The notes below the pieces were generated by a model that did not search any database, had not been told where the DNA came from, and saw nothing but the letters and a program-made list of their open reading frames with translations. Both the position numbers and the translations under genes were made by a program. A stretch of DNA of 35,850 bases, taken from positions 1-35,850 of the forward strand of contig KZ539039.1 of the NCBI GenBank assembly GCA_000934665.2, in the 5' to 3' direction. Numbering within the stretch: the first letter of the stretch is position 1; each line of letters opens with the position of its first letter. The stretch is from Catajapyx aquilonaris. Taxonomy: Eukaryota. This document shows positions 99 through 35,850 of this stretch, in pieces.

Positions 99-1166
99 CA
101 CAAATCTTAATTATCATCACCTAACATTCCAATAAAATATTGACTGCTGAGTATTATTTTCACTGTATGCATACTTTTCTCTCTAAGTCAATAATGCAAT
201 ACCAGCTCACAAAATCATGCTGCTTTATATCTAATATTTGAGATCATGCCATTGTCTACTGCTCTGTATGAAATATCACAATTTTATTACAGTTTTTGGT
301 ATAAAATATTATACCACACTACTCAGACTGGAAGTGGTGCATATGCTCACCCTAACCGTGGCTTATTACGGATTGGATGCAAGGACAGCTGATGCGAAAT
401 ATGCAATATACTGTACTTGCTCTATATTTCATAGCTCCTGCACCAACAACTGGGCATAATAACTGTGGTGACAGAAACCCTGACCATAAACTTCAATAAG
501 CTTCTAATGGATTTTCATTGGTTGTTGTGTGATGCAACCAAATGAAATGCAATAGAGCTCATATCATTCAAAAATCATGATTAAATCACTGTCATCATAG
601 AGTTCATTCCTCTATCCTATTGAATGGCTGTTGGTCAGTCAGTTACAACAGATTATTACAGGATTTCAATGTGATTGCAGGTGAATAATGGCATGCAGTA
701 CTTTTACGGAGTGTCAGTACAGGCAAAGAAGGTGAATATCCAAGTGACCTAATGAGGCTAGAATTTTTCGTTGCCGAGTCACTTTCTTCTTGACTCATTA
801 GTTATTGGGCATTCACACTGCAATTCAAAAGTGATCCCAACAAAAATATACACCGTATTCAAAACTAGGTTCGAGATACTTGAAACAACTTTATCGTATA
901 CAACATATGCAAATGACGATAATTCCGACATAATGCATAAACATGAGTAATAGACATTTCTCTAAAAATAGAAAACAAGATAATTAAAAAAACATTAAAA
1001 TTACACATAACAGACAAAAATACCACCAATGAAACACAGGCAGATGTAATCATAAATTATTTTATTTTAAAATAATCGTTACAATAACTTCATATTGAAA
1101 ATATCTCCATTGCACAAATGTACAATGACAAATCGGTTAACAAATTAGCACAATGACGCATGAGAT

Positions 1167-4100
1167 CTATGAATTGTAGGACTCTATCTCCTTCTCGACT
1201 GCCTTGCGATACTCATCAAAACCACCTTCCATGCTTGTGACTTTTCCATTTGCACAAACCCAGAGCTCCTTGCACACCATTTGTATCAACTTCTCATCAT
1301 GAGATACCAATATCATGCCTCCCTGAAATATTTAAAAACAAACAAACAGGTGATACATCTTTCACGGAAACAGCTTTCTCCCTGCTTACATTGAAGGAGT
1401 TGATGGCATTTCCTAAGGCTTCAATAGTCTCAATGTCCAGATGATTCGTCGGTTCATCTAGTACTAAGAAATTTGGCCTGCTCATGCTCATAACAGCAAA
1501 GGCCACCCGTGACTTCTGCCCTCCCGACAGGCTGTTAATCTTCTGTATTGCAAGGTCTCCTGTTACTCCGAAGCTACCCAGATGCCGTCTGTACTCCTCC
1601 AATCGCTTGCCTATGACACACATCATTCTTACACAAAAATAACAAAATAAACCATGCAAAATGCTGTCAATGTACGTAGAAACAAGCTATGAAAATCACT
1701 AGCTGAAAATAAAATGCAATCATTGGATCCTTGGAATGTCTTGGGTATAGGTCCTCAAGTTCTGGCTATTTTCACACGGAGAAACTGCTGCAACTGAAAC
1801 TTTGGTAATACATGTATTTGCATTTGCCACGTAATGAGACCCTTATAATTTCTTCACCAATAAGACGATGAAACAACTGCTGATCACAACTGCTCACACA
1901 TACTCCTATGAAGGGTCGTGGATGGGCTTACCTGGAAACTTGGCCTGAAGAAATTCCAAAGAGGAAATGTCCATATCAAGCTGGTCCACATGATGCTGGC
2001 TGAAGTATCCAAACTTCAGGTTTCGGTGTGCATGCCTGATCCCTGCGTTGGGAGTCAGATCCTCCATCAGTAGCTTCAGAAGAGTGGTCTTTCCATTCCC
2101 GTTCTCACCTACAACGCATATTCTTGACTCTAGGTTGGCGTTCAGGTTCACCTTTACCAATATTGGATAGCCTTTCTCATATGCAAATGATACTTCGTCC
2201 AGTTGGAGTATTGGTGGCGAGAGAGCCTCGGTTGGAGGGAACTTTAATGTCACTGCTGATTCATCCACAACTGGCTGAAGTTCTGGACTATTGGAAAAAA
2301 TATATGAGTGACTTCAGCAGGCTCAGTTTCACAATTCATGACTCCAACAAGTGCAAGCATACTCACAGCCTTTCAAGAAGCTTGATCCTGCTCTGAACTA
2401 ATGAAGCCTTGTTGGGATGTGCTCGGAACTTGTCTATGAATTGTTGTACATGAGCTCGATATTGTACCTGCGACTCATAGTCCCGCTGCTGCTTTTTCAG
2501 TTTCTCCACTTTTGTTTTTACAAAGTTATCGTAATTTCCCCTGGAAAAGTAATGGAAGGTAAAATAGGTTTATTATATCGCAACAGATCACAGATCATGA
2601 CAGCTTCTGTCTCTGATTAGTTTGTGGACACTCTTATAATAGGAATTTGGGATTCTGCAGGATTCACACAATTACAGGCAGGCCCCATTTTGTTTTCTGT
2701 GGTGCATTGTGGCACACTGTCCTATGAATGAGAAATTACCTGTAGGAATCAATACGCTGCGAATACAGATGCAGTATTTCATTGGGAACAGTGTCTAAGA
2801 ACAGCCTGTCATGGGAGACAACCAGAAGAGTGGTTGGCCAGTTCTGCAGGTATGACTCAAGCCAAATGATGGCCTTCATGTCCAACATGTTGGTGGGTTC
2901 ATCGAGAAGCAGCAGGTCAGGCTTGGCAAACAGCGCCCTGGCCAGGGATAGCCTCATGCGCCATCCTCCTGAAAACACCTTTGTTGGAAGCTTCTGCTTC
3001 CTGCTGTCAAACCCAAGTCCAGCTAGGATTACGCTGGCACGGGCCGGAGCCTTGTCCGCCTCGATATGCTGTAGTTCCGAATACACCTCGGCTAGTCGCT
3101 TGCTGATTTCTGCACTGTTGTTCCTGTATGTGCAAAGGCAAGTTAAAATAATAATGAAGAATGGGCTTGTTGCATGAACTTATGAGAATATCAACCTGCA
3201 CTTACTCATCATTTGCTTTGCTGCTTAGCTCCCGTTCTTCCTTCAATAGTCGTTCCCGCACACTGTCACTTTCTAGCACACTGTCAATAGCCAAAGTATC
3301 ATCTCCAGCAACTTCCTGCTCTACGTGAAGCACAGAGATGTGAGATGGGATCCTCAGCTGGCCACTACAATCATGCAAACACATCAGTTGACATCAGCAA
3401 TCACACTAGAGAATCCCTTTATCCACCTGGATATCATTCGGAGAAGTGTAGTTTTTCCAAGTCCATTTCTTCCCAGGAACCCATACCTTTTCCCATAAAC
3501 AAGCGACAAATCTGCACCTTTCAGGAGGACTCTGAAAGTGAACTTCAATTACATTCAACCCGATTTCCACCCAGTGCATGACGCAACTGTTACCTGTCAC
3601 CAAATGAAATGTCAAAGTTCTCAATCCTAATATCCTTGCATTTGTTTGTCCCCTTTGCTTCCATCTTAATTTCCTTCTTGCTTTGTGCCTGGCTTGCACT
3701 TCCTGCATTTCCATTCACAACTGTATTGGATATTTTAGACTCCTTTGTCCTTTGCTTCTCTTGCTTTTGCTGCTGCTTAGCTATGGCTTTGTTCAGCTTT
3801 TTCTGGTCAACCTTCTGAAATGTTAACAGTGTTAATAATCATCATAAAATATTAGAAGTTGTATGTTCCTAACCGCAGTGTTGTCTCGTTGCACAACCCA
3901 GATGCTCTTAATTTCTTCCGCATTTGACTCCATGTTGGCAGCCAAACTTCCAAGATGCACGGGTTGACTCAACACCCTTCCAGGCATACTATTGTCCTTC
4001 TTTTCCAGTTTTAAGGAGTTCAATAGTAGTTTGCATAATGCCCTAGGATTTAAAATATGCTTCGAGTGAACAAAACTTGACACGGAGACATGTCATCACT

Positions 4101-4593
4101 TTTCATACATAATATCCGCTTTGCTTCGGCCACCTCCAACATCTTGCAAGACCTCTCCAACAGCATCATACACATCCTGTGCATCTTCAAATTCTTCCTT
4201 CCCGTTTTCCAGCACTCCTAGAAATTGCAGAAAAATGTACTGTACATTACATATTACCACTCTTGATATTACATGTATTGTGATGGAAAAAATATGATTG
4301 CACCACATTGCACCATGCACTACAACACTCCCAGCAACAAGTTAACACTAATCTTATTCATGCATCACTATCACTTAGATCACTAGGCCGCACGTGAACC
4401 TCAAAAAAATTGAATCTCAAAATTTCATTTGAATCAGTTTTTGGCGCCAGAAAAAAAAAAAAAACAGTATAGGCAACAGTCGAGGCTGCTGTTCACCTTC
4501 AATGTACTGGCTCAGCTCGTCGTCAATGCCCGGAAAGTCGTTCCGGACCACCTCCATGCAGGACAGATGATCACCAGTGTCCAGTGACACCAT
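1167..4593 (-). CDS. ABCF3: ABC-F family ATPase, ABCF3/GCN20-like, divergent tandem paralogue (copy A), 11 exons, about 716 aa
   Basis: Exons 4593-4497, 4217-4109, 4042-3874, 3814-3594, 3531-3427, 3364-3206, 3123-2740, 2540-2367, 2287-1932, 1610-1390, 1322-1167. All introns are GT-AG with consistent phase; total 2151 nt, ATG to TAG. Two NBDs (GRNGLGKTT, FSGGWRMR, LLLDEPTN; GENGNGKTT, LSGGQKSR, LVLDEPTNHLD), no TM domain, GCN20-like N-terminus. Minus-strand AATAAA at 1061-1066. Confidence 0.93.
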
Positions 4594-4830
4594 TTTCGCC
4601 GGTGATTTCGCGACGATTCACTTTTTAACGAGCAGCATCCGCATCAGGTGGCACCAACTCCGCCCACTCCAATGTTGCCAACATAGGCGATGACGTCACA
4701 CTGTTGAAACTTATTGCCGCCAAAAAAAATCACTAAAATAATTAATAATAATCATAAGTTAACAAATCGGCGATTTTATCCTGCAAAATAATTGGGGTTG
4801 GGTATCACACAAAGACTAGGACCAAGTGTT
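4594..4830 (-). promoter_or_regulatory. Compact putative promoter/5' UTR of ABCF3 copy A with a perfect CRE/ATF palindrome
   Basis: CpG-containing stretch between the copy A ATG and the copy B polyA signals; TGACGTCA at 4691-4698. Function is inferred from position only. Confidence 0.45.
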
Positions 4831-5176
4831 GCTAGTTTATTGATAAATATTTTTTTTATATTATGATAATTATGCAACATTATCTGCACCAGTTATCAAC
4901 ATTTTGTCTTACAGGTGGCTTTACAGATCCTTTTTCACTATAGAGCAGCTTGATTTTTTTATTTCTCTCTCTAAATGATGACTCCTCACTGGAATATGCC
5001 ATAATAATTTGGAAGGGGGGGAGACTGCTGGTAAACAACGTCTGAAAAGTCACGTCCGAATAGTTGCGCTTGAAGTAAGCAACACCCCTGAGAGGCTGCC
5101 TAGTACATTCAAGGAATCTGGAACGGGGGCAACTGTGACTTCATTGTGACTGTCCCAAATTTGAGGCGGATTAAGG

Positions 5177-8100
5177 CTACTTTGATTGAGCTTCTATCTC
5201 CTTCTCAACTATCCTGCGATATTCATCAAAACCGCCCTCCATGCTTCCGACGCTTCCTTCTCCGCAGACCCACAACTCTTTGCATACCATTCGGATCAGC
5301 CTCTCGTCATGAGAAACTAGGATCACTCCTCCCTGGAACAAGAGAGTAGTTATTAGATGTCAACAAGTCAACCTGGTCTCATTCCACCTACATTGAAGGC
5401 ATTGATGGCATTTCCTAATGCTTCAATCGTCTCTATGTCTAGATGGTTCGTAGGTTCATCAAGTATGAGAAAGTTCGGCCTGCTCATGCTCATTACGGCA
5501 AAGGCCACCCGTGACTTCTGCCCCCCTGACAGGCTGTTAATCTTCTGTAGGGCAAGATCTCCTGTCACTCCAAAGCTGCCCAGTTGCCGTCTGTACTCCT
5601 CTATTCGCTTTCCTGCAAAACATACAATACATGAGCAATGAAACAACAAAACTATGTGCTTCTGTGAAGGCTTATGCCAAGACTGACCAGGAAACCTGGT
5701 CTGAAGGAACTCCAAGGAAGATATATCCATCTCCAGCTGGTCCACATGATGCTGGCTGAAGTATCCAAACTTCAGGTTTCGGTGTGCATGCCTGATCCCC
5801 GCACTTGGCGTCAGATCCTCCATCAGTAGCTTCAGAAGAGTGGTTTTTCCGCTTCCGTTCTCGCCTACAATACATATCCTGGACTCCAGGTTGGCGTTCA
5901 GGCTCACCTTGACCAAGATTGGACGGTCCTCTTCGTAGGAAAATGACAACTCATCTAGCTGGAGTATTGGCGGGGAAATAGGCTCAGTTGGAATGAACTT
6001 CAACGTCACTGCAGATTCATCTTCCACAGGTTTCAGCTCTGGGCTGAAAACCAGAATTATAATATGACTCGGGGGCATCCATCAGCAATAATATGATTTC
6101 AACATTTAGGCAATAAGTAACACCAGATGTTATAATATGCACATTTATAAAAAATTGTGGCAGTAACCAACTCACAGTTTTTCCAGAAGTTTGATCTTGC
6201 TTTGAACCAATGATGCTCTCTTTGCATTGTACCTAAACTTATCAATGAATTCTTGTACATGCACCCTGTACTGCATCTGGGCCTCATACTCCCGTTGCTG
6301 GTTCTTTAGCTTCTCTGCCTTTGCCTTCACAAAGTGCTCATAATTACCTCTGGAAAATGAGAAAACAATATTAGCTTGATTACGTGCTAGCCAATAGATC
6401 TGAAACCCTCAAAAACATGTCAATGTCACTGAATCGCAAACAGGCCACGAAGCAATTGCAGCAGCCCTTTCATGAGCTGAGACAATTTAATTTCTACTAT
6501 CATACCACACTTTCAATAAGAATTACCTGTAGGAATCAATACGCTGCGTATGCAGATGCAGTATTTCATTGGGAACAGTGTCTAGGAACAGCCTGTCATG
6601 GGAGACAACCAGAAGGGTGGTTGGCCAGTTCTGCAGGTATGACTCCAGCCAAATGATGGCCTTCATGTCCAACATGTTGGTGGGTTCATCGAGCAGCAGC
6701 AGGTCAGGCTTGGCAAACAGCGCCCTGGCCAGGGATAGCCTCATGCGCCATCCTCCTGAAAACACCTTTGTTGGAAGCTTCTGCTTCCTGCTGTCAAACC
6801 CAAGTCCAGCTAGGATTACGCTGGCACGGGCCGGAGCCTTGTCTGCCTCGATATGCTGTAGTTCCGCATACACCTCGGCTAGTCGCTTGCTGATTTCTGC
6901 ATTTTGGTTGCTGTAATGCACAAGTAGGTGAGACCTGGCTTGCTCACTTTTATCTGAATTGACCATATACTACCGAAAGGAACTGACTTTTCATTAGCCT
7001 TGCTGCTCAATTCTCGCTCTTCTTTCAGCAGTTGTTCCCGGATAGTGTCACTCTCCAGCACACTCTGAAGTGCAATAGTTTCATCCCCGACAACCTCCTG
7101 TTCCACATGCAGTATAGATATGTGCGATGGTATTCTCAACTGGCCGCTGAAATGTCATTCACATTATTAGAGCGAAATACATCATACAGAAGGAAAAACA
7201 CTACCTAGAAATCATCCGGAGCAAAGTAGTTTTTCCAAGGCCATTCCTTCCTAGGAGACCATACCGCTTACCAAACACAAGAGTCAAGTCAGCACCTTTC
7301 AACAATACCCTGTAAAGAACATTGGAACATCATACAGTTTATTCATAAACCACTCTCTCCTAAGTCGCCACATTACCTGTCACCAAAAGACACATCAAAG
7401 TTCTCAATCTTGATGTTCTTGCAATTGTTTGACCCTTTGGCCTCCATCTTCATGTCCTTCTTACTCAGCATCTGACTTGCACTGGCCAAATTTTCTTTTG
7501 CAGCCGCGGGTGCAGGCGGCTTAGGATCTTTGCTTCTTTTCTCATGCTTCTGCTGCAGCTTAGCCTCAGCTTTCTCCAGCTTCTTTTGATCGACCTTCTG
7601 CAAACCATTTTGTTTTATCGTTAATATGAGATGATTGCTAGGTGTATCGCTGGCCGTGATATAATGAATTAATATCAATCAAGCAGAATTTAAGCACAAT
7701 TTTCTAACCAGTGTGTCGTCCCTCTGAGCCACCCAGATGCTCTTAATTTCCTCGACGTTTGACTCCAAAGTGGCTGCCATGCTTCCGAGATGCACAGGCG
7801 CATTCAGTACCCGAGTAGGTCCGTTCGAGCACTGTTTATCCATTTTCATAGTATCTAATAAATGCTCACACAACATCCTGAAATGAAAATTGCATTACAT
7901 TTTTTTTTTTTTTTTTAAACAGCAGATCAACTTACATAATATCTTCTTCGCTCTTGTTGATCCCAATTTCTTGCATGACTTCTCCAATGGCATCGTACAC
8001 CTCCTCGGAATTCTCGAAGTCCTCCTTACCATTTTCTAAAACACCTGCGAACGTAACGAAAGCCGCATTGATCCTAATGACTTCATCTCTTAATATGCTA

Positions 8101-8372
8101 CTATAATTAGTATTCCACATATTTCTTTTTTTTTGTTCTTTACAGTTAATCTTTTCTCCTTTTTTTTTTTTTTGCCAGACAATGTTGCTGACGTCGTCAT
8201 GTTCAATTCCCAGGCTTATGATAAATTCAAACCATACTCTTTTCAGTGCTTCCAAATACTTGGCCATGTCCTGCCCCCACCTTTTGGGGCTGAACTTACC
8301 TTCGATATACCGGTACAGGTCGTCATCTATTGAAGGAAACTCGCTCCGAATCAGTTCCATGCAGGCGGCCAT
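5177..8372 (-). CDS. ABCF3: ABC-F family ATPase ABCF3/GCN20 (copy B, canonical), 11 exons, about 708 aa
   Basis: Exons 8372-8300, 8044-7936, 7877-7709, 7597-7377, 7309-7205, 7146-6988, 6910-6527, 6349-6176, 6043-5688, 5612-5392, 5332-5177; total 2127 nt. Exons 2-11 match copy A in length. Starts MAACMELIRSEFPSIDDDLYRYIEGVL; linker FIDKFRYNAKRASLVQSKIK; both ABC cassettes intact. Minus-strand AATAAA at 4958-4963 and 4836-4841. Confidence 0.95.
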
Positions 8373-9150
8373 TTCTACCTCTCCGGTTTAATTTTTTTTT
8401 TTTTTTAAGCAGTTGCATGGGGAATGGAGGTGGGTAATGACTCAGTCCTTGCAATTTAATATCTGGCTTTCATATTAAGCACATAGTACTGTCGCAATTA
8501 AACATAATTAAGGCTTGAAATTAAGTTTTAATTAATGAGAGCCGAAATTGGGCGTTATATTAAGATGTTACTAATAGCGGCTATGTAACTAGCCGGTCGC
8601 ACATGCAGCGTACAGTACATGCTGTTACATTACGGATGAGGTATGCACACAATAGGATCATACCGGATCGTACTACTTCAAATGCGGTGAATATTACGCT
8701 CTGTACGTTTAATTACGTTCGATCATATTAAAAAGTGCGATGATAGCTGTTGTTGTAGCCGCGATTTTTCCCGGTGCGGCTGTGCTGCTTTCGGCCCGCT
8801 TCTGTTTCCTAATGGCTGCCGTTCGGCTTCTGATGGAGAAGAAGCGTGTATCTTGAGCTCCTGTCCTTTTCTGTTCTCGTCGGGACGAAGCTGGGTCCTC
8901 TGGACGGACAGGGGGACACGGTTGGGCCGTGTCGCGCAGGGCAGGTGGCTGTGGACAGGAAGAGGCAGGTACAATGCTCCAGGCTCCAAAAGTGCTCCTT
9001 AGGAATAGAACATATTTTTAATGTTACATGTGCATTTACAGGGAGACGAGGTGGCCTTAATATTTATGATTGATTAACCAGTGGCTGCATAATGGAGGCG
9101 GCCAACGCAGAAGGTATTACATTGGTATTGTTGGTAAGCGCAATTGCATA
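8373..9150. promoter_or_regulatory. Divergent promoter region ABCF3-B / COPS7, including a probable COPS7 5' UTR exon and UTR intron 8969-9041
   Basis: Head-to-head ATGs at 8372 (-) and 9151 (+). A GC/CpG-rich block at about 8755-8968 ends at CAG|GTACAA, followed by an AT-rich 73 nt ending TTTACAG. Confidence 0.5.
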
Positions 9151-10829
9151 ATGTCGGGATGTTCAGTTCCAGTGGCTGGCACGTCTGGTACGGCGGCAGT
9201 GGCTGGCGAGGCTAAGCCGGCGACTATGACCACACCGCTAGAGCAGTTTGTGCTTCTGGCCAAACAGGCGAAGGGAGCGGCCGCGGTCGGATTGATCAAG
9301 CAGGCTTTGGAGGCTTCAGGGGTGTACGTGTTTGGTGAGCTTTTGGACATGCCGAATATCCAGGAGCTGAAGGAAGGGAGCCATCAGGCTTACTTCAACC
9401 TGCTCAACCTCTTTGCGTATGGGACATTCAAACAGTACCTGCTTAATGAGAAGGAACTGCCACAAATGACGGCCCCGCAGAAAAAGAAGCTGCAGCATCT
9501 TACCATTGTCACGCTTGCCACGAAAACTAAGGTTTGAGCAACCATTAGTTTCAATCTTCCATCTTCTTCCTGCAGAAGTGTAGTAAAAATTAGCTGTAAG
9601 TGACTAAACGAGCAAAATTCCCGTGAAATAGGTATTACAGAGCACTGAGGGTATTGCGTATTACTGTTGCTAACTGTTGTGCAGTGGTGGAAATCGATGG
9701 ATATCCCCAAGTATCACTGCCTTTCTTTACACTTTACATGAAGCAACTTCATGTAAAGGAAAAGCACCGCCAGACAGCAATATTTGTGGATAGCCATTAG
9801 TTTCCACTGCTGTACAATAGTAGTAATTTATTGTATGCTGAACACTAGAATGGTATGTGTACAGAAATTTCAATTATTTTGTATACATAATAATAATAAT
9901 ATGTAAACTTTACAGTCTGGCACAGTAGTAGCTAGAAACTGCCTACATAATTGAATCGCTTATTTAGATTATGATATTGCTTTTACAGTGCATTCCCTAT
10001 GCTACTTTGCTACAAGAATTAGACATGAACAATGTCAGGGAGCTGGAGGATCTTATTATTGAAGCCATCTATGCAGGTAAGATTTTATGCATTTCCTTCA
10101 TACAAAAGTTGACTTATGAAAGCAATGAAATTAAATTGAGTATATACTTGCGAAAACAATGAAATGAAACTAAAAATAAAGTAAAAGGTCTGTGTGCTAC
10201 ACTGAGCGCTGATGTTTTTTGAGAATGGATTAGTAGAGCTCAGTTATGCACTGAGATATTTCTTATCAGAGATTTCATGGCTATGAGGCAAAGTCAATAG
10301 AAATCCCACCCATAGCATGTCGAGTCCAGAGAGCAGAGCAAAGTTTCATTTTTTACACAATCATTTACATTCCATGTACTTTCTGAAGATATACTTCACG
10401 GCAAGCTGGATCAAAAGAATTCACAGCTGGAGGTGGACTATGCCATAGGGAGGGATATCCGTCCAGAGGACGTAGGCACCATTGTGGCCACCCTGCAAGA
10501 CTGGTGTGATTCCTCGGAGGCAGTCCTCTCCTGCATAGAGGCACAGATCAACAGGGCTAATGCGGAAAAGAACAAGATGCTGAAGCACAGGGAAACTGTT
10601 GAACAAGAGGTCTGCGTCGTCTTTGAAACGTTGCAATGCATTGTGATGACATGATTACTCTTTGCAGATTATGAACATAAAGAAAACACTGAAGAGTCAG
10701 GTGCAGGATCCGGAGGAAGGGATGGGCTCGGACAACAGGGAAGCATTGGCACAGCCTGAGAAGGGAGGGAAGAAGCAGATCAAGTCCAAGTCACTAAGAG
10801 GAAGCGGGAAGTTCTGGCAAAAGTCATGA
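9151..10829 (+). CDS. COPS7: COP9 signalosome subunit 7 (PCI domain), 4 coding exons, about 283 aa
   Basis: Exons 9151-9531, 9989-10076, 10389-10609, 10668-10829, all in phase. Motifs [71 protein letters not shown]; basic C-terminal tail [11 protein letters not shown]. The start Met (9151 or a downstream Met) is inferred. Confidence 0.94.
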
Positions 10830-11153: not shown

Positions 11154-11296
11154 NNNNNNNNNNNNNNNNNNNNNNNNNNNNNNNNNNNNNNNNNNNNNNN
11201 NNNNNNNNNNNNNNNNNNNNNNNNNNNNNNNNNNNNNNNNNNNNNNNNNNNNNNNNNNNNNNNNNNNNNNNNNNNNNNNNNNNNNNNNNNNNNNNN
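11154..11296. other. Assembly gap (143 N) between a poly-C run and a minisatellite
   Basis: Run of N in the sequence. Confidence 0.99.
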
Positions 11297-11736
11297 TTGA
11301 TCCACAATTGTTGTTTGGAACACTTTTTTTATTGATCCACAATTGTTTCTTGGAACACTTTTTTATTGATCCACAATTGTTTTTTGGAACACTTTTTTTG
11401 ATTGATCCACAATTGTTTTTTGGAACACTTTTTTTTATTGATCCACAATTGTTTTTTGGAACACTTTTTTGATTGATCCACAATTGTTTTTTGGAACACT
11501 TTTTTTATTGATCCACAATTGTTTTTTGGAACACTTTTTTGATTGATCCACAATTGTTGTTTGGAACACTTTTTTGATTGATCCACAATTGTTTCTTGGA
11601 ACACTTTTTTTTGATTGATCCACAATTGTTTTTGGAACACTTTTTTTGATTGATTTTTGATCGATCCACAATTGTTTTTTGGAACACTTTTTTTTTGATT
11701 GATTTAGGATTGATCCAAATTGGTTTTTTGGAACTC
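11297..11736. repeat. Minisatellite, unit about 35 bp (TTGATCCACAATTGTTTTTTGGAACACTTTTTT(G)A), about 12 visible copies, truncated by the gap
   Basis: Unit starts at 11297, 11332, 11366, 11402, 11438, 11473, 11508, 11543, 11578, 11615, 11661 and a degenerate copy at 11710. Head-to-tail with no unique spacers. Confidence 0.97.
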
Positions 11737-11960
11737 TTTCTCTCTCTGTTCTAAGCAGCTATTATTGTTCATGTAACAGCTATGCTGCATGTTCTGTCCT
11801 GGTTGTTCAAAGATGGCCGCCCTTTTTTTTCTTCTTCTTCTGTACATGTTGTGAGTCATCACATGCGATGGTCTATGCGAGTTATGCAGCATACGTCTGA
11901 AGCAGCAGCCACGGTCTGAACTCGTGTCTCTTTGGCTGCGGCCAGTGGAACTGAAGGAGG

Positions 11961-15761
<3,801 letters not shown>

Positions 15762-16097: not shown

Positions 16098-18095
16098 TCA
16101 TGCAACAAGTAGTGGTAAATCACGAGTTTGATGCATTCGCCTTAATCGGTGAATGTATAACAATATGGCTGCCACGACGGCTGCGAGGCATCCCAATACA
16201 ATGTAATTGGATGGGAGTAAAGTCATGTGCCTCACGGATCTCTGCTGACCACCCAGCCGAAGCGTCGATTGCTCCACAGCTCGCAATGGGAAGAATCGTG
16301 TGCGGTACAGCAGTGCTCCCAGCGTCCAGTGAACAACCGCTGAACCTGCACCAGTCTCGAGTGAATTGGGACTTGCAATTAACCTAGTAAAATCTTGAGG
16401 GATCCCAAACCCTCGATGGACCACAGCTGCAAGCCACGCAGACTTGAAGCACTGAAATCGCATCCTGTGGCCGTCAGCCATTGGGTATCGCCCCTCACGG
16501 TGCTCCCTAGCTCTTGTAATCCAATCAACCGCTGAGCAGAATCGCCTGGAAGCCTTACGTAGGGAAGGGAAGGAGTAAGTCCCTCCGATGTGAAGAACAT
16601 CTTCCAAGGAATACCAGAACTCTGAAAAGCCGTAGAAGTTGGTGTGACGGAGCGGGAGAGGTGCAAGGAGTGGAGGCGGATCGGAAGAATTGGCTGACTC
16701 CGGAGCAAGCAGGGTTTCCAGGCGGGAAAGGCAGATGTCCCAGTCGCCTGAGCCTAAGAGGTGTGCGGGCTTTCCAGTTCCAGCCAGGTCTTCCTTCAAG
16801 CCTCGAGGCAAGCATGGGTCAATCACAGTTCCATCCGAACTCCTGATGGAACAAAACATGGACGTAACATTTACTGAAACAGCAACATGGCAGCACTTAC
16901 TTGAGTCCATCATGGTAGCGACGTATGGCCTCATTAGCACCGAGCCCGAGAAAGGTGTCGACGTACACTCTGTAGGTGTGGCCTGCATCGTGATCCTGGC
17001 ACCCCAAATTTATCTCCATAATTTTGGCGTCCCTTTGGTGGCGGGAGGTGACCTCGAAGGCCACCTGCAACGAGGCTCCGCCCATGTCCATTGCACCGAC
17101 TGTTGGCCTGCGGTACACCAGACCAGGCATGCCAGCTTCAGGCGCAGCACCGTCACCTTCCTGCACATCAACCGCAACCAGGGAAGTGTTTGCGGATGGG
17201 TTCTGCGTAGGGTCATCCACATCCTGGAACCTCCCAAGGACAAAGTTGACTGCAATCCACTGGTACAGGCCCTCCTGGCGACCTGATATGACCTCCGCAT
17301 GGTCTGACGGAAACAGGAAGCCAAACTTGCGAGGAAGCTCTACACGCAGGTTTGTCAGTAGCGCATCTTGCTGGCTACAAATATTAAATTATAAATTATT
17401 TTATATATCAGCAGCTGAATAGTGCATTTGAATATGTCGTACACAGAAGATGTTATTGTTAGGACTCAACTGTGTATAAACCACACTTTGCTTGTGCACC
17501 TGTGCTATTGTGCAATTTCAATTTTTTAAAAGCAGAGCACACATGTTACATGCAATGTGGAAAAGTACGACCATCTGCTGTGTTGCAACACATACGGATT
17601 GCAATAATAAATGTAAAAGCACCCTAATTACCTCTGATCAAGCAGCCTCATCCCCGCGGTGGCCAAGATGTAGAGCGGGGTCTCCCTGTGCTTCGGGGCA
17701 GGGACGTGCCCAGCGGCAAACTCCAGCAGGGGTGCCACGTTCCTTGCGGCATCCCAAGGCCTGGATGCAAAGCTGGAGATGCCTGGACTGACCTTGCTGA
17801 CCAAGGGCTGCCCCCTTCCGTCCAGCACCGGCCGTATGCGCAGGAGCTGCTGGGGCGACCCCGAGTGAGGAGGCCACTCGTACAGGTAGACCCTGCTCCC
17901 GCTGCTTCCAGCGTCGATGACCACCGCATAGTGCGACGAGGAGGGAAGGTCCGATGCTGCATCAGACAGCAGGAGGTTGTAGTACCTGAAGGTGACCAGG
18001 GCCAACGTGATCAGCAGGAGGGTGACGGTCAGGAGGGAGCACCGGGACCAGCAGGCCACCGGCGAGGAGAGGATCAGCAGGAGGCGGCGGGACAT
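16098..18095 (-). CDS. GDA1/CD39-family nucleoside triphosphate diphosphohydrolase, ENTPD4/7-like, 3 exons, about 560 aa
   Basis: Exons 18095-17632, 17374-16901, 16842-16098; total 1683 nt. All five apyrase conserved regions are present: DAGSSGSR, LATAGMRLL, SGRQEGLYQW, DMGGASLQ, WTLGALL. NLGC, GFSEFWY and CFKSAW are typical of the ENTPD4/7 clade. TM helices near both termini. Confidence 0.92.
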
Positions 18096-18180
18096 CAGGC
18101 CGCGCCCGGGGTCAAAGGGCACGGCCGCCTCTGGGCAGACAGCTGCAGCGGACCACAGGAGAAGGAAGTGCCACACAGAA

Positions 18181-18342
18181 CGCCGCCATCTTGGGAAAAG
18201 GAACAAGACGTGGAGACATCTGGCGGACCAATCACAAAACGTAATATATTAGCCACAGCTGCAAAACCGCGTAGCTGTTATAACCGGACAAGGGCAAAGA
18301 TGGCCGCTCACTGAGGGATTCGAACGGGTTTTTTTTTTGCAG
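18181..18342. promoter_or_regulatory. Putative short bidirectional promoter (NTPDase / APC13) and non-coding APC13 exon 1
   Basis: Outward-facing YY1-like motifs: CGCCGCCATCTT at 18181-18192 (-) and AAGATGGCCG at about 18297-18306 (+). CCAAT near 18228. Donor CAG|GTAATG at 18343 could pair with the acceptor AG at 19751-19752. Confidence 0.5.
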
Positions 18343-19012: not shown

Positions 19013-19756
19013 CCATTAATTTTCGATGAGCCACTCCATATAGTGGTAAGTGTTTTCTGAAATGAGGAACATCAATAAGCACATTAATTCCTATACGATT
19101 GGTGTGAATTATTGCCATGAAACATTCATGCAGAATCGTCATCTCTTCTAGATGCTGATTTTAACTATGATGTTTAATTTTTCACAATGTAAACGTAAAT
19201 TGGTGAATTTTATAGGGTGTTTTTCGAGCGAATTATGCATTTTCTGGAGCGAAAATTTCCAAGTCTGTGAGGATGAGTTTAGTTTTTTTTTCCAATTTTT
19301 TTCTTATCAAAATAAAAAAACTCTTCGCAATACCAGCTATACCGCCATCGCCTAGGTTGTCACTTACACGTACTCTGAAGACAAGGACAAGATATTTTAC
19401 AAATAATAACAGCTGCAATGATATATCATATCATACTAACACGTGTATGCTCTACACTACAGTCTGCGCTATGAATGTATTGGAGACGATTTTCGTCGCT
19501 TAGAAGTCCCTAAAATGATTTTCGCAGAGATAGTCGTTAAAAAAAACGAAATTCAAGTGCTACCGGCCAACTGTTAGTCTTATTTAATTATGAAATAGCA
19601 TATACGTTAAAATATACGGAATATCAACATTGAAAACCTTACCAGACGAATTTGCTGAAATCGTGGTACTTTGCAAGAATTAAATTGATACACATCTGCG
19701 GCTTTTCTCCTGTCAAAATGTTATCATCTGCAGATTTTTTCGTCCCCAACAGAGCC

Positions 19757-20023
19757 ATGGACTCGGAGGTGACTCTGGATGGCCGCATGGTCCTCGATGT
19801 GGTTGATGACAAGTGGCGAGAGGAGGAACTGCCTGACGATGACATCAGCGTCCCAGCCTCTGAGCTTCCAGACCAGGAGGCAGACGGAGGCAACTCACAA
19901 ATCAGTCTGAAGGAGCAGGAGCAGAAGTGGACCGACTTAGATTTGGGAAGTCTCCTCGAGACCAGCCAATCTGGATTCACCCTGAATCAGTCTCAAGTCA
20001 CACCTACTGCCACACCCAACTGA
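19757..20023 (+). CDS. ANAPC13: Anaphase-promoting complex subunit 13, single coding exon, 88 aa
   Basis: MDSEVTLDGRMVLDVVDDKWREEELPDDDISVP...LKEQEQKWTDLDL matches the APC13 pattern. Acceptor CAACAG lies 4 nt before GCCATGG; AATAAA at 20217-20222. Confidence 0.93.
   Translation: MDSEVTLDGRMVLDVVDDKWREEELPDDDISVPASELPDQEADGGNSQISLKEQEQKWTDLDLGSLLETSQSGFTLNQSQVTPTATPN

Positions 20024-21991: not shown

Positions 21992-35850
<13,859 letters not shown>

Follow-up and report, generated by a model that had tools for sequence, protein, structure and literature searches.

Two neighbouring, complete ABCF3/Gcn20 genes were found in tandem on the minus strand of a 35,850-nt stretch of the Catajapyx aquilonaris genome (contig KZ539039.1 of assembly GCA_000934665.2, positions 1–35,850; hereafter the window). 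Judged from its sequence, one of them, copy A (1167–4593; 11 coding exons, 716 residues), is a genuine paralogue kept by selection, with a derived tip on the helical hairpin that links NBD1 and NBD2, its two nucleotide-binding domains. The other, copy B (5177–8372; 11 coding exons, 708 residues), is the conservative paralogue. At the tip, copy A carries the residues A455-H456-P457-N458-K459, encoded on the minus strand by GCA CAT CCC AAC AAG (2408–2422), instead of the family-typical YNAKR of copy B, encoded by TAC AAT GCA AAG AGA (6217–6231). We give an even chance to the reading that copy A is a functional, transcribed and maintained protein whose tRNA-facing turn has been re-specified while its ATPase core and rRNA-anchoring helix were kept.

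The tip lies in exon 8, which encodes both helices that make up the linker between the domains (PtIM; Pfam ABC_tran_Xtn, PF12848) and is found at 2367–2540 in copy A and at 6176–6349 in copy B, on the minus strand in both cases. The exon is 174 nt long in both copies and flanked by AG/GT. Its translation reads RGNYDNFVKTKVEKLKKQQRDYESQVQYRAHVQQFIDKFRAHPNKASLVQSRIKLLERL in copy A (window 2366–2542, minus strand) and RGNYEHFVKAKAEKLKNQQREYEAQMQYRVHVQEFIDKFRYNAKRASLVQSKIKLLEKL in copy B (window 6175–6351, minus strand), with FIDKFRYNAKRASLVQSKIKLLEKL as the tip portion of the latter. PF12848 was matched with 65.2 bits by exon 8 of copy A (E 6e-18, cut-off 25.9, profile positions 13–69 of 85) and with 63.5 bits by that of copy B. 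Translation and gene models confirmed the coordinates of the exon and of both tips, and they bore out the original prediction that five consecutive residues, including a new proline, differ between conserved flanks: FIDKFR precedes and ASLVQS follows the tip in both copies. The exchange requires 5–6 non-synonymous point changes. When the fourth tip position was read against insect-like outgroups, asparagine appeared to be its ancestral state, so that about four of the five changes probably fell on the branch of copy A and one (N to K) on that of copy B.

Five adjacent changes between identical flanks are also the pattern expected from paired compensating indels, and the tip could thus be an artefact, whether from faulty sequencing or assembly, from haplotypes collapsed into one or from a local compensated frameshift that mimics five substitutions. 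We hardly credit this explanation. Contigs from one public run (X1, of a kind not on record, which contains 46% of the sampled words of 1150–8400) match exon 8 of copy A letter for letter, so that misassembly of the window is not the source of the tip, although the run may stem from the same organism as the assembly. A compensated frameshift was rejected as the origin of the changes, given that AHPNK is absent from both alternative frames of the copy B DNA and that the best gapped DNA alignment moves only 1–2 codons, with 5–6 point substitutions preferred. Four-fold degenerate sites outside exon 7 agree at only 83 of 165 positions, and because half of them differ, the copies are old paralogues and not haplotypes. 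The idea that one gene carries two alternative, mutually exclusive versions of exon 8 was likewise dismissed, because all 11 exons are present in both copies and the contigs link exons of one and the same copy.

The tip was compared with three samples of related proteins. The first was retrieved with exon 7 of copy B and hence blind to exon 8; among its 74 proteins of under 1000 residues, 73 carried R-[YF]-N-A-[NK]-R-A, the lone exception being P0097 with NRHDKKLA. The second comprised 100 proteins retrieved with exon 8 of copy A itself and is unbiased at the five tip positions, because the word index could use only the flanks. It takes in spiders, mites, flatworms, plants, green algae, ciliates and apicomplexans, and its tips read RYNAKRA (81), RFNAKRA (16), RYNASRA (1), RANAKKA (1) or RANAKRA (1), with N-A in all 100. 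The third, 148 cluster representatives retrieved with exon 8 of copy B and therefore biased towards B-like tips, showed Y (99), F (24), S (13), C (7), A (4) or H (1) at the tyrosine position, N in 143, A in 146, K or N in 143 and R in 146. In a separate alignment of 60 sequences, the N and A of the tip were among the invariant columns. The His and Pro that copy A carries at N-A occurred in none of the three samples, the 148 representatives and the 100 word-search matches included, nor in 320 ABCF3-like proteins. The original prediction described RYNA as conserved from yeast Gcn20 to human ABCF3; this stood for the near-invariant N and A, at which the tip does not vary across orthologues, but failed for the Y. 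The replacement of Y by A is tolerated elsewhere in the family and most metazoans share the N at the fourth position, and on this sampling the unusual changes of copy A are N to H, A to P and R to K. The family motif derived here, R-[YF]-N-A-[KN]-R-A, which is a conserved feature and not a published definition, is present in copy B (R-Y-N-A-K-R-A) and absent from copy A (R-A-H-P-N-K-A). Copy A is an ABCF3 member by descent and architecture, with a derived tip.

These surveys bear on a rival account, nearly neutral drift, according to which the ancestral function rests with copy B, copy A has become partly redundant, and relaxed constraint on its tip, a matter of a few auxiliary contacts, let substitutions accumulate while function and specificity stayed the same. 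We regard it as a serious possibility that falls short of an even chance. The tolerance of Y to A and of K to N elsewhere in the family fits such drift, and so do the rare deviant tips of other ABCF3-like proteins, 7 of 320 of which truly deviate at N-A or R (P0097, for instance); yet N-A varies little or not at all in animals, plants and protists, which argues for the importance of these residues wherever only one copy of the gene is present. P0097 (713 residues) is an arthropod-clade ABCF3-like protein on a long branch, in which FINKNRHDKKLAG replaces FIDKFRYNAKRAS at the tip. It shares with copy A its clade and the fact of a rewritten tip, but differs in the replacement letters and belongs to an independent lineage; such variants may therefore recur.

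The distribution of changes over the whole protein was then considered. Among 124 full-length homologues, 118 alignment columns were at least 98% conserved. Copy A departs from them at four (T401N, N456H, A457P and R459K) and copy B at two, namely D178N and the T-to-N exchange shared with copy A, which consequently predates the duplication. The three private deviations of copy A all fall within four residues of the tip; by sampling, three columns drawn at random from the 118 would lie this close together with P = 3.4e-4. At 90% conservation, the private deviations of copy A were Y455A, N456H, A457P, R459K and L613I. Deviation at ultra-conserved columns is thus specific to the tip and not a sign of uniform relaxation, the outcome that would have spoken against a particular role of the linker. 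Since copy A keeps 114 of the 118 columns, shares one of its four deviations with copy B and shows a dN/dS ratio of 0.13 (see below), relaxation under the drift account would need to be confined to four adjacent residues.

Of 708 residues in the alignment, copies A and B have 560 (79%) in common. Over 708 codons, non-synonymous divergence (dN) was 0.128 and synonymous divergence (dS) 0.99 (about 0.8–1), giving a dN/dS ratio of 0.13. This combination points to long-lasting purifying selection after duplication, and at such a pairwise ratio copy A appears to be far from neutral. The two copies were recovered as sisters with a FastTree support of 1.0 (126 rows) and, in a quick IQ-TREE tree, with a value of 100 in the Shimodaira–Hasegawa-like approximate likelihood ratio test (SH-aLRT). 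They fall within the arthropod ABCF3 group (SH-aLRT 99), outside its insect and chelicerate sub-clades. The duplication is old, lineage-specific and tandem. The branch of copy A (0.19–0.31) is 3–4 times longer than that of copy B (0.07–0.08). Against each of 10 outgroups, 61–66 residues were unique to copy A and 24–31 to copy B (chi2 9.8–17.4), and against the consensus of 30 outgroups the private changes numbered 71 and 27, respectively. Identity to insect ABCF3 is 67% for copy A and 72% for copy B. The longer branch and the larger number of private residues mark copy A as the derived, faster copy, and both would be expected under drift; against drift, 5–6 non-synonymous steps in five codons compare with a mean of about 0.1 per residue on the same branch.

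Exon 7, which encodes the signature, Walker B and H-loop of NBD1 (2740–3123 in copy A, 6527–6910 in its conversion partner copy B, minus strand), is exceptional. Its synonymous difference per site (pS) is 0.065, compared with 0.44–0.92 in the other exons, 56 of its 60 four-fold sites agree, and its DNA is about 97% identical between the copies from about 2740 to 3115, with neighbouring introns that cannot be aligned. By these measures, exon 7 has been homogenised between copies A and B in a gene-conversion tract confined to one exon. Exon 8, some 200 nt beyond the end of the tract, shows full divergence (pS 0.92). A stronger proposal takes this contrast into account: copy A may be a natural separation-of-function ABCF3 that keeps ATPase activity and rRNA anchoring, has lost or re-specified the contact with the P-site tRNA's CCA end and is maintained by selection, with B-to-A gene conversion tolerated in exon 7 but excluded from exon 8. 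We put this forward tentatively and consider it possible but doubtful.

That the altered stretch is the turn of the interdomain hairpin, as the original prediction had it, was corroborated by PF12848, by a structural model of a homologue and by alignment to the tRNA-touching tip of Escherichia coli YheS. The AlphaFold2 (AF2) model of homologue P0086, computed from a 60-row alignment, had a mean predicted local distance difference test score (pLDDT) of 86 and comprised a helix (409–444), a loop (445–447; R445-Y446-N447) and a second helix (448–463) starting with the invariant Ala. The hairpin sits between NBD1 and NBD2, and its turn has a pLDDT of about 90. The P0086 model superposed on ribosome-bound YheS-EQ2 (template-modelling score 0.83), YbiT (0.84) and human ABCF1 (0.82). 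Modelled alone, exon 8 of copy A gave a helix at 2–41, a break at His42 and a helix at 43–58 from Pro43 (mean pLDDT 85.5). A Foldseek search of this 59-residue model against the PDB returned 0 matches, the query being too short to inform.

By sequence, the best matches in the PDB were YheS, Arb1, YbiT and ABCF1. The best solved match to exon 8 was YheS (PDB 9nlh_H and 9vvi_W), which aligns without gaps over 58 residues (E 6e-9). F-R-Y-N-A-K-R-A thereby corresponds to F266-R267-A268-K269-A270-T271-K272-A273 of YheS, in a numbering that reproduces 13 of 13 residues named in the YheS paper. According to the accessible part of that paper, Lys269 and Ala270 at the PtIM tip of YheS contact the P-site tRNA, with U73 engaged by a salt bridge and C74 by a hydrogen bond. 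There, H258, R267, T271, K274, Q275, Q277, S278, R279, K281 and R285 are described as binding 23S rRNA near the peptidyl-transferase centre, and residues neighbouring the tip as touching helices H74, H75, H80 and H93 of the 23S rRNA (PMC13249984). The N-to-H and A-to-P changes of copy A affect the positions that match K269 and A270, respectively. At the equivalents of H258, R267, K274, Q275, Q277, S278, R279, K281 and R285, copy A is the same as copy B or differs by a K/R exchange only. Copy A also has YheS residues at several positions, namely Ala at the tyrosine position and Arg at two K/R positions, and its natural proline was engineered into YheS as A270P, as part of a double mutant. YheS differs from ABCF3 in being bacterial, in lacking the ABCF3 N-terminal domain and in having a C-terminal extension.

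Whether copy A is live was judged from the X1 contigs and from the intactness of its frame. Ten X1 records were placed, all at least 99% alike and with 0 differing letters; parts of the window outside their cover count neither way. Six introns of copy A are skipped in these contigs at exactly the predicted junctions (joints 2287/2367, 2539/2739, 3122/3205, 3364/3427, 3814/3874 and 4041/4108), as are nine of copy B, and the skipped introns of both copies have CT..AC ends on the plus strand. Record 1 spans exon 8 of copy A (2367–2539) with 0 mismatching letters, and one contig of 459 nt joins exons 9, 8 and 7 of copy A across the AHPNK codons. The intron-less contigs of both genes are most simply explained as spliced RNA, and with intron-skipping contigs in hand, copy A does not come out as an unexpressed gene. 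Two loose ends were noted: one X1 contig matches exon 8 of copy A up to 2478 and continues with 255 unrelated letters, the break not being at an AG, and another begins at 1331 in intron 10 with 33 unmatched letters. The consensus of the loose end at 1331 had 0 matches in the window. These contigs may be chimeric or represent minor isoforms.

Copy A appears intact, as had been predicted. Its frame is open over 716 codons, and ABC_tran matches were obtained in exons 5 and 7 (NBD1) and in exons 9 and 10 (NBD2). Read from the translation, NBD1 contains GRNGLGKTT, SGGW, LLLLDEPTN and SHD, and NBD2 contains GENGNGKTT, LSGGQ, LVLDEPTN and SHD, which we take to be the Walker A, signature, Walker B and H-loop motifs; all are kept in both domains. 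The 716 residues are colinear with soluble ABCF3 proteins of 704–724 residues and include no extra segment. Exons 1–4 are colinear with ABCF3 N-termini (tblastn) and 44–62% identical to copy B. PF26051, which describes an N-terminal region in ABCF3 homologues, was not matched in single-exon Pfam scans of exons 2, 3 and 4 of copy A, probably because pieces of one exon are too short.

A further alternative holds that copy A is decaying to a pseudogene or is a non-functional transcribed duplicate, with the rewritten tip as one symptom. It could draw on the faster rate of copy A, on an exon 1 and start codon that lack contig confirmation and on the interval of about 235 bp between the end of the coverage of the copy B 3' untranslated region (4827) and the ATG of copy A (4593), which leaves little room for a promoter. 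A frame of 716 open codons with ten canonical introns, the intron-skipping contigs, ATPase motifs that are all intact and a dN/dS ratio of 0.13 at a synonymous divergence of about 0.8–1 make decay improbable.

Under the favoured reading, an old lineage-specific tandem duplication would have given rise to both copies, with copy A as the fast-evolving partner. Copy A would have kept the whole ATPase machinery and, by analogy, the face of the hairpin that anchors on large-subunit rRNA in solved ABC-F–ribosome complexes, and its turn would have changed from Y-N-A-x-R to A-H-P-N-K. The Ala-to-Pro change would replace the counterpart of YheS Ala270, which hydrogen-bonds C74. A proline, having no main-chain NH, would be expected to abolish this bond, although the donor atom is not stated in the accessible part of PMC13249984. 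The Asn-to-His change would alter the side chain at the counterpart of YheS Lys269. Copy A would most likely still enter the ribosomal E site in its ATP form and may hold or displace the P-site tRNA's acceptor end otherwise than copy B, amounting to sub- or neo-functionalisation. We infer this functional consequence of the tip and, by analogy, both the binding of the ABCF3 ABC module to ribosomes and the conservation of the YheS contact geometry.

Several points weigh against this reading. No solved structure with an ABCF3 or Gcn20 linker on the ribosome was found in a PDB search for ABCF3/Gcn20 chains covering the linker; altered ribosome-contact specificity, when taken as a fact, and the tissue, stress or toxin-related role suggested by the original prediction are unsupported. 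No A-type orthologue was found: none of 100 matches to exon 8 of copy A in a collection of 5.8 billion proteins carried AHPNK, the best reaching 75% identity and no self match being returned. This absence says little, because the lineage is poorly sampled (best match 80% for the most conserved exon and 85% for exon 8 of copy B), but long-term conservation of AHPNK is unproven. Copy A is 3–4 times faster overall, which is compatible with relaxed constraint. X1 is not recorded as RNA (its kind is given as '?'), its contig depth gives no ranking of copy A against copy B, and exon 1 and the start codon of copy A fall in a gap of its cover (4296–4779). Gcn20 is the partner of Gcn1 in the activation of Gcn2, and its N-terminal region binds Gcn1 in yeast. 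The accessible text of a study states that the ABC domains of Gcn20 are dispensable for Gcn2 activation and that no more than the N-terminal Gcn1-binding part is required (10.64898/2026.09.19.752920), so that the tip may not matter for the only pathway known. When the tRNA contact of YheS was targeted by a K269A/A270P double mutation, activity showed 'only modest effects' (PMC13249984). The last two observations would also be expected if the tip of copy A had merely drifted.

Compared with the ABCF3/Gcn20 subfamily, as described in the accessible part of Murina et al. 2019 (PMC6723617), copy A appears colinear over its full length, with a probable ABCF3-type N-terminal region, NBD1, the PF12848 linker and NBD2 and, judging by this colinearity, no membrane domain; it differs in being a second, lineage-specific copy and in its R-A-H-P-N-K-A tip. 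The antibiotic resistance factors of the ARE-ABCF group (VmlR, MsrE, LsaA, VgaA and others) have the same fold and the same hairpin between the NBDs, the PtIM/ARD, whose tip as a general rule determines specificity. Their tips are lengthened by up to 36 residues, according to the accessible portion of a preprint on many ABC-F complexes, in which the tip always touches the P-site tRNA's acceptor stem and its variation sets the displacement of the stem (10.1101/2023.06.15.543498). In copy A, by contrast, the length is unchanged and the identities differ, and nothing about it points to antibiotic or toxin resistance. The nearest mechanistic analogues, by comparison of the linkers, are thus the tips of the bacterial ABC-F PtIM/ARD, which vary mostly in length where copy A varies in identity. 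The literature search returned no paper on a tandem ABCF3 duplicate or an altered ABCF3 linker tip.

The role of the ABC domains and linker of ABCF3/Gcn20 is still open in the literature, and, according to the Gcn20 study, no structure shows the ABC module bound to a ribosome (10.64898/2026.09.19.752920). The hairpin turn of ABCF3, comprising N-A and an R two places further along, ranks with the best-conserved sites of the entire protein across eukaryotes, which argues for an unrecognised, conserved contact. Copy A offers a ready-made natural mutant, otherwise constrained, in which exactly the tip residues are replaced, one of them by the same Ala-to-Pro exchange that was engineered in YheS. 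Comparison of copies A and B for ribosome binding, tRNA positioning and stress signalling could reveal the purpose of the tip. If the separation of functions were true, it would be evidence that on eukaryotic ribosomes the ABCF3/Gcn20 ABC module does work at the E site and the peptidyl-transferase centre, and that N-A, invariant from plants to animals, has a specific job that can be divided between paralogues. The significance is limited in that this is a sequence observation from a single lineage.

Splice-aware gene models of both copies were scored against four ABCF3 references. The exons of copy A (minus strand) lie at 4593–4497, 4217–4109, 4042–3874, 3814–3594, 3531–3427, 3364–3206, 3123–2740, 2540–2367, 2287–1932, 1610–1390 and 1322–1167 (exons 1–11). 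Those of copy B (minus strand) lie at 8372–8300, 8044–7936, 7877–7709, 7597–7377, 7309–7205, 7146–6988, 6910–6527, 6349–6176, 6043–5688, 5612–5392 and 5332–5177. After exon 1, exon lengths are equal in the two copies (109, 169, 221, 105, 159, 384, 174, 356, 221 and 156 nt), and the introns of both are all GT..AG. In a self-comparison of the window, about 1150–4620 is repeated at about 5100–8390, with exon DNA 76–82% identical. The stop codon of copy B and the start codon of copy A are 584 bp apart (4593–5177), and X1 contigs of the copy B 3' end extend down to 4827. Many short ABCF3 database fragments from unrelated sources stop exactly at ...LEKL or ...LEKV, the end of exon 8, a sign that the intron following the linker exon may keep its place in many lineages.

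The remaining genes of the window were assigned by Pfam matches on open frames. COP9 signalosome subunit 7 (CSN7; about 9070–10650, plus strand) is arranged head-to-head with copy B and is followed by LETM1 (about 13000–15500, plus strand), a GDA1/CD39 nucleoside phosphatase (about 16100–18300, minus strand), APC13 (19634–20020, plus strand) and a D-2-hydroxyacid dehydrogenase (about 23500–29600, minus strand). The locus is compact and eukaryotic, with ordinary housekeeping genes around the ABCF3 pair. A run of 143 N (11154–11296) adjoins a tandem array with a 35-bp unit (about 10 copies, 93% match, 11297–11654), and a related 49-bp periodicity continues beyond this array to 11739. The repeat at 11154–11739 is probably a collapsed or unfinished satellite.

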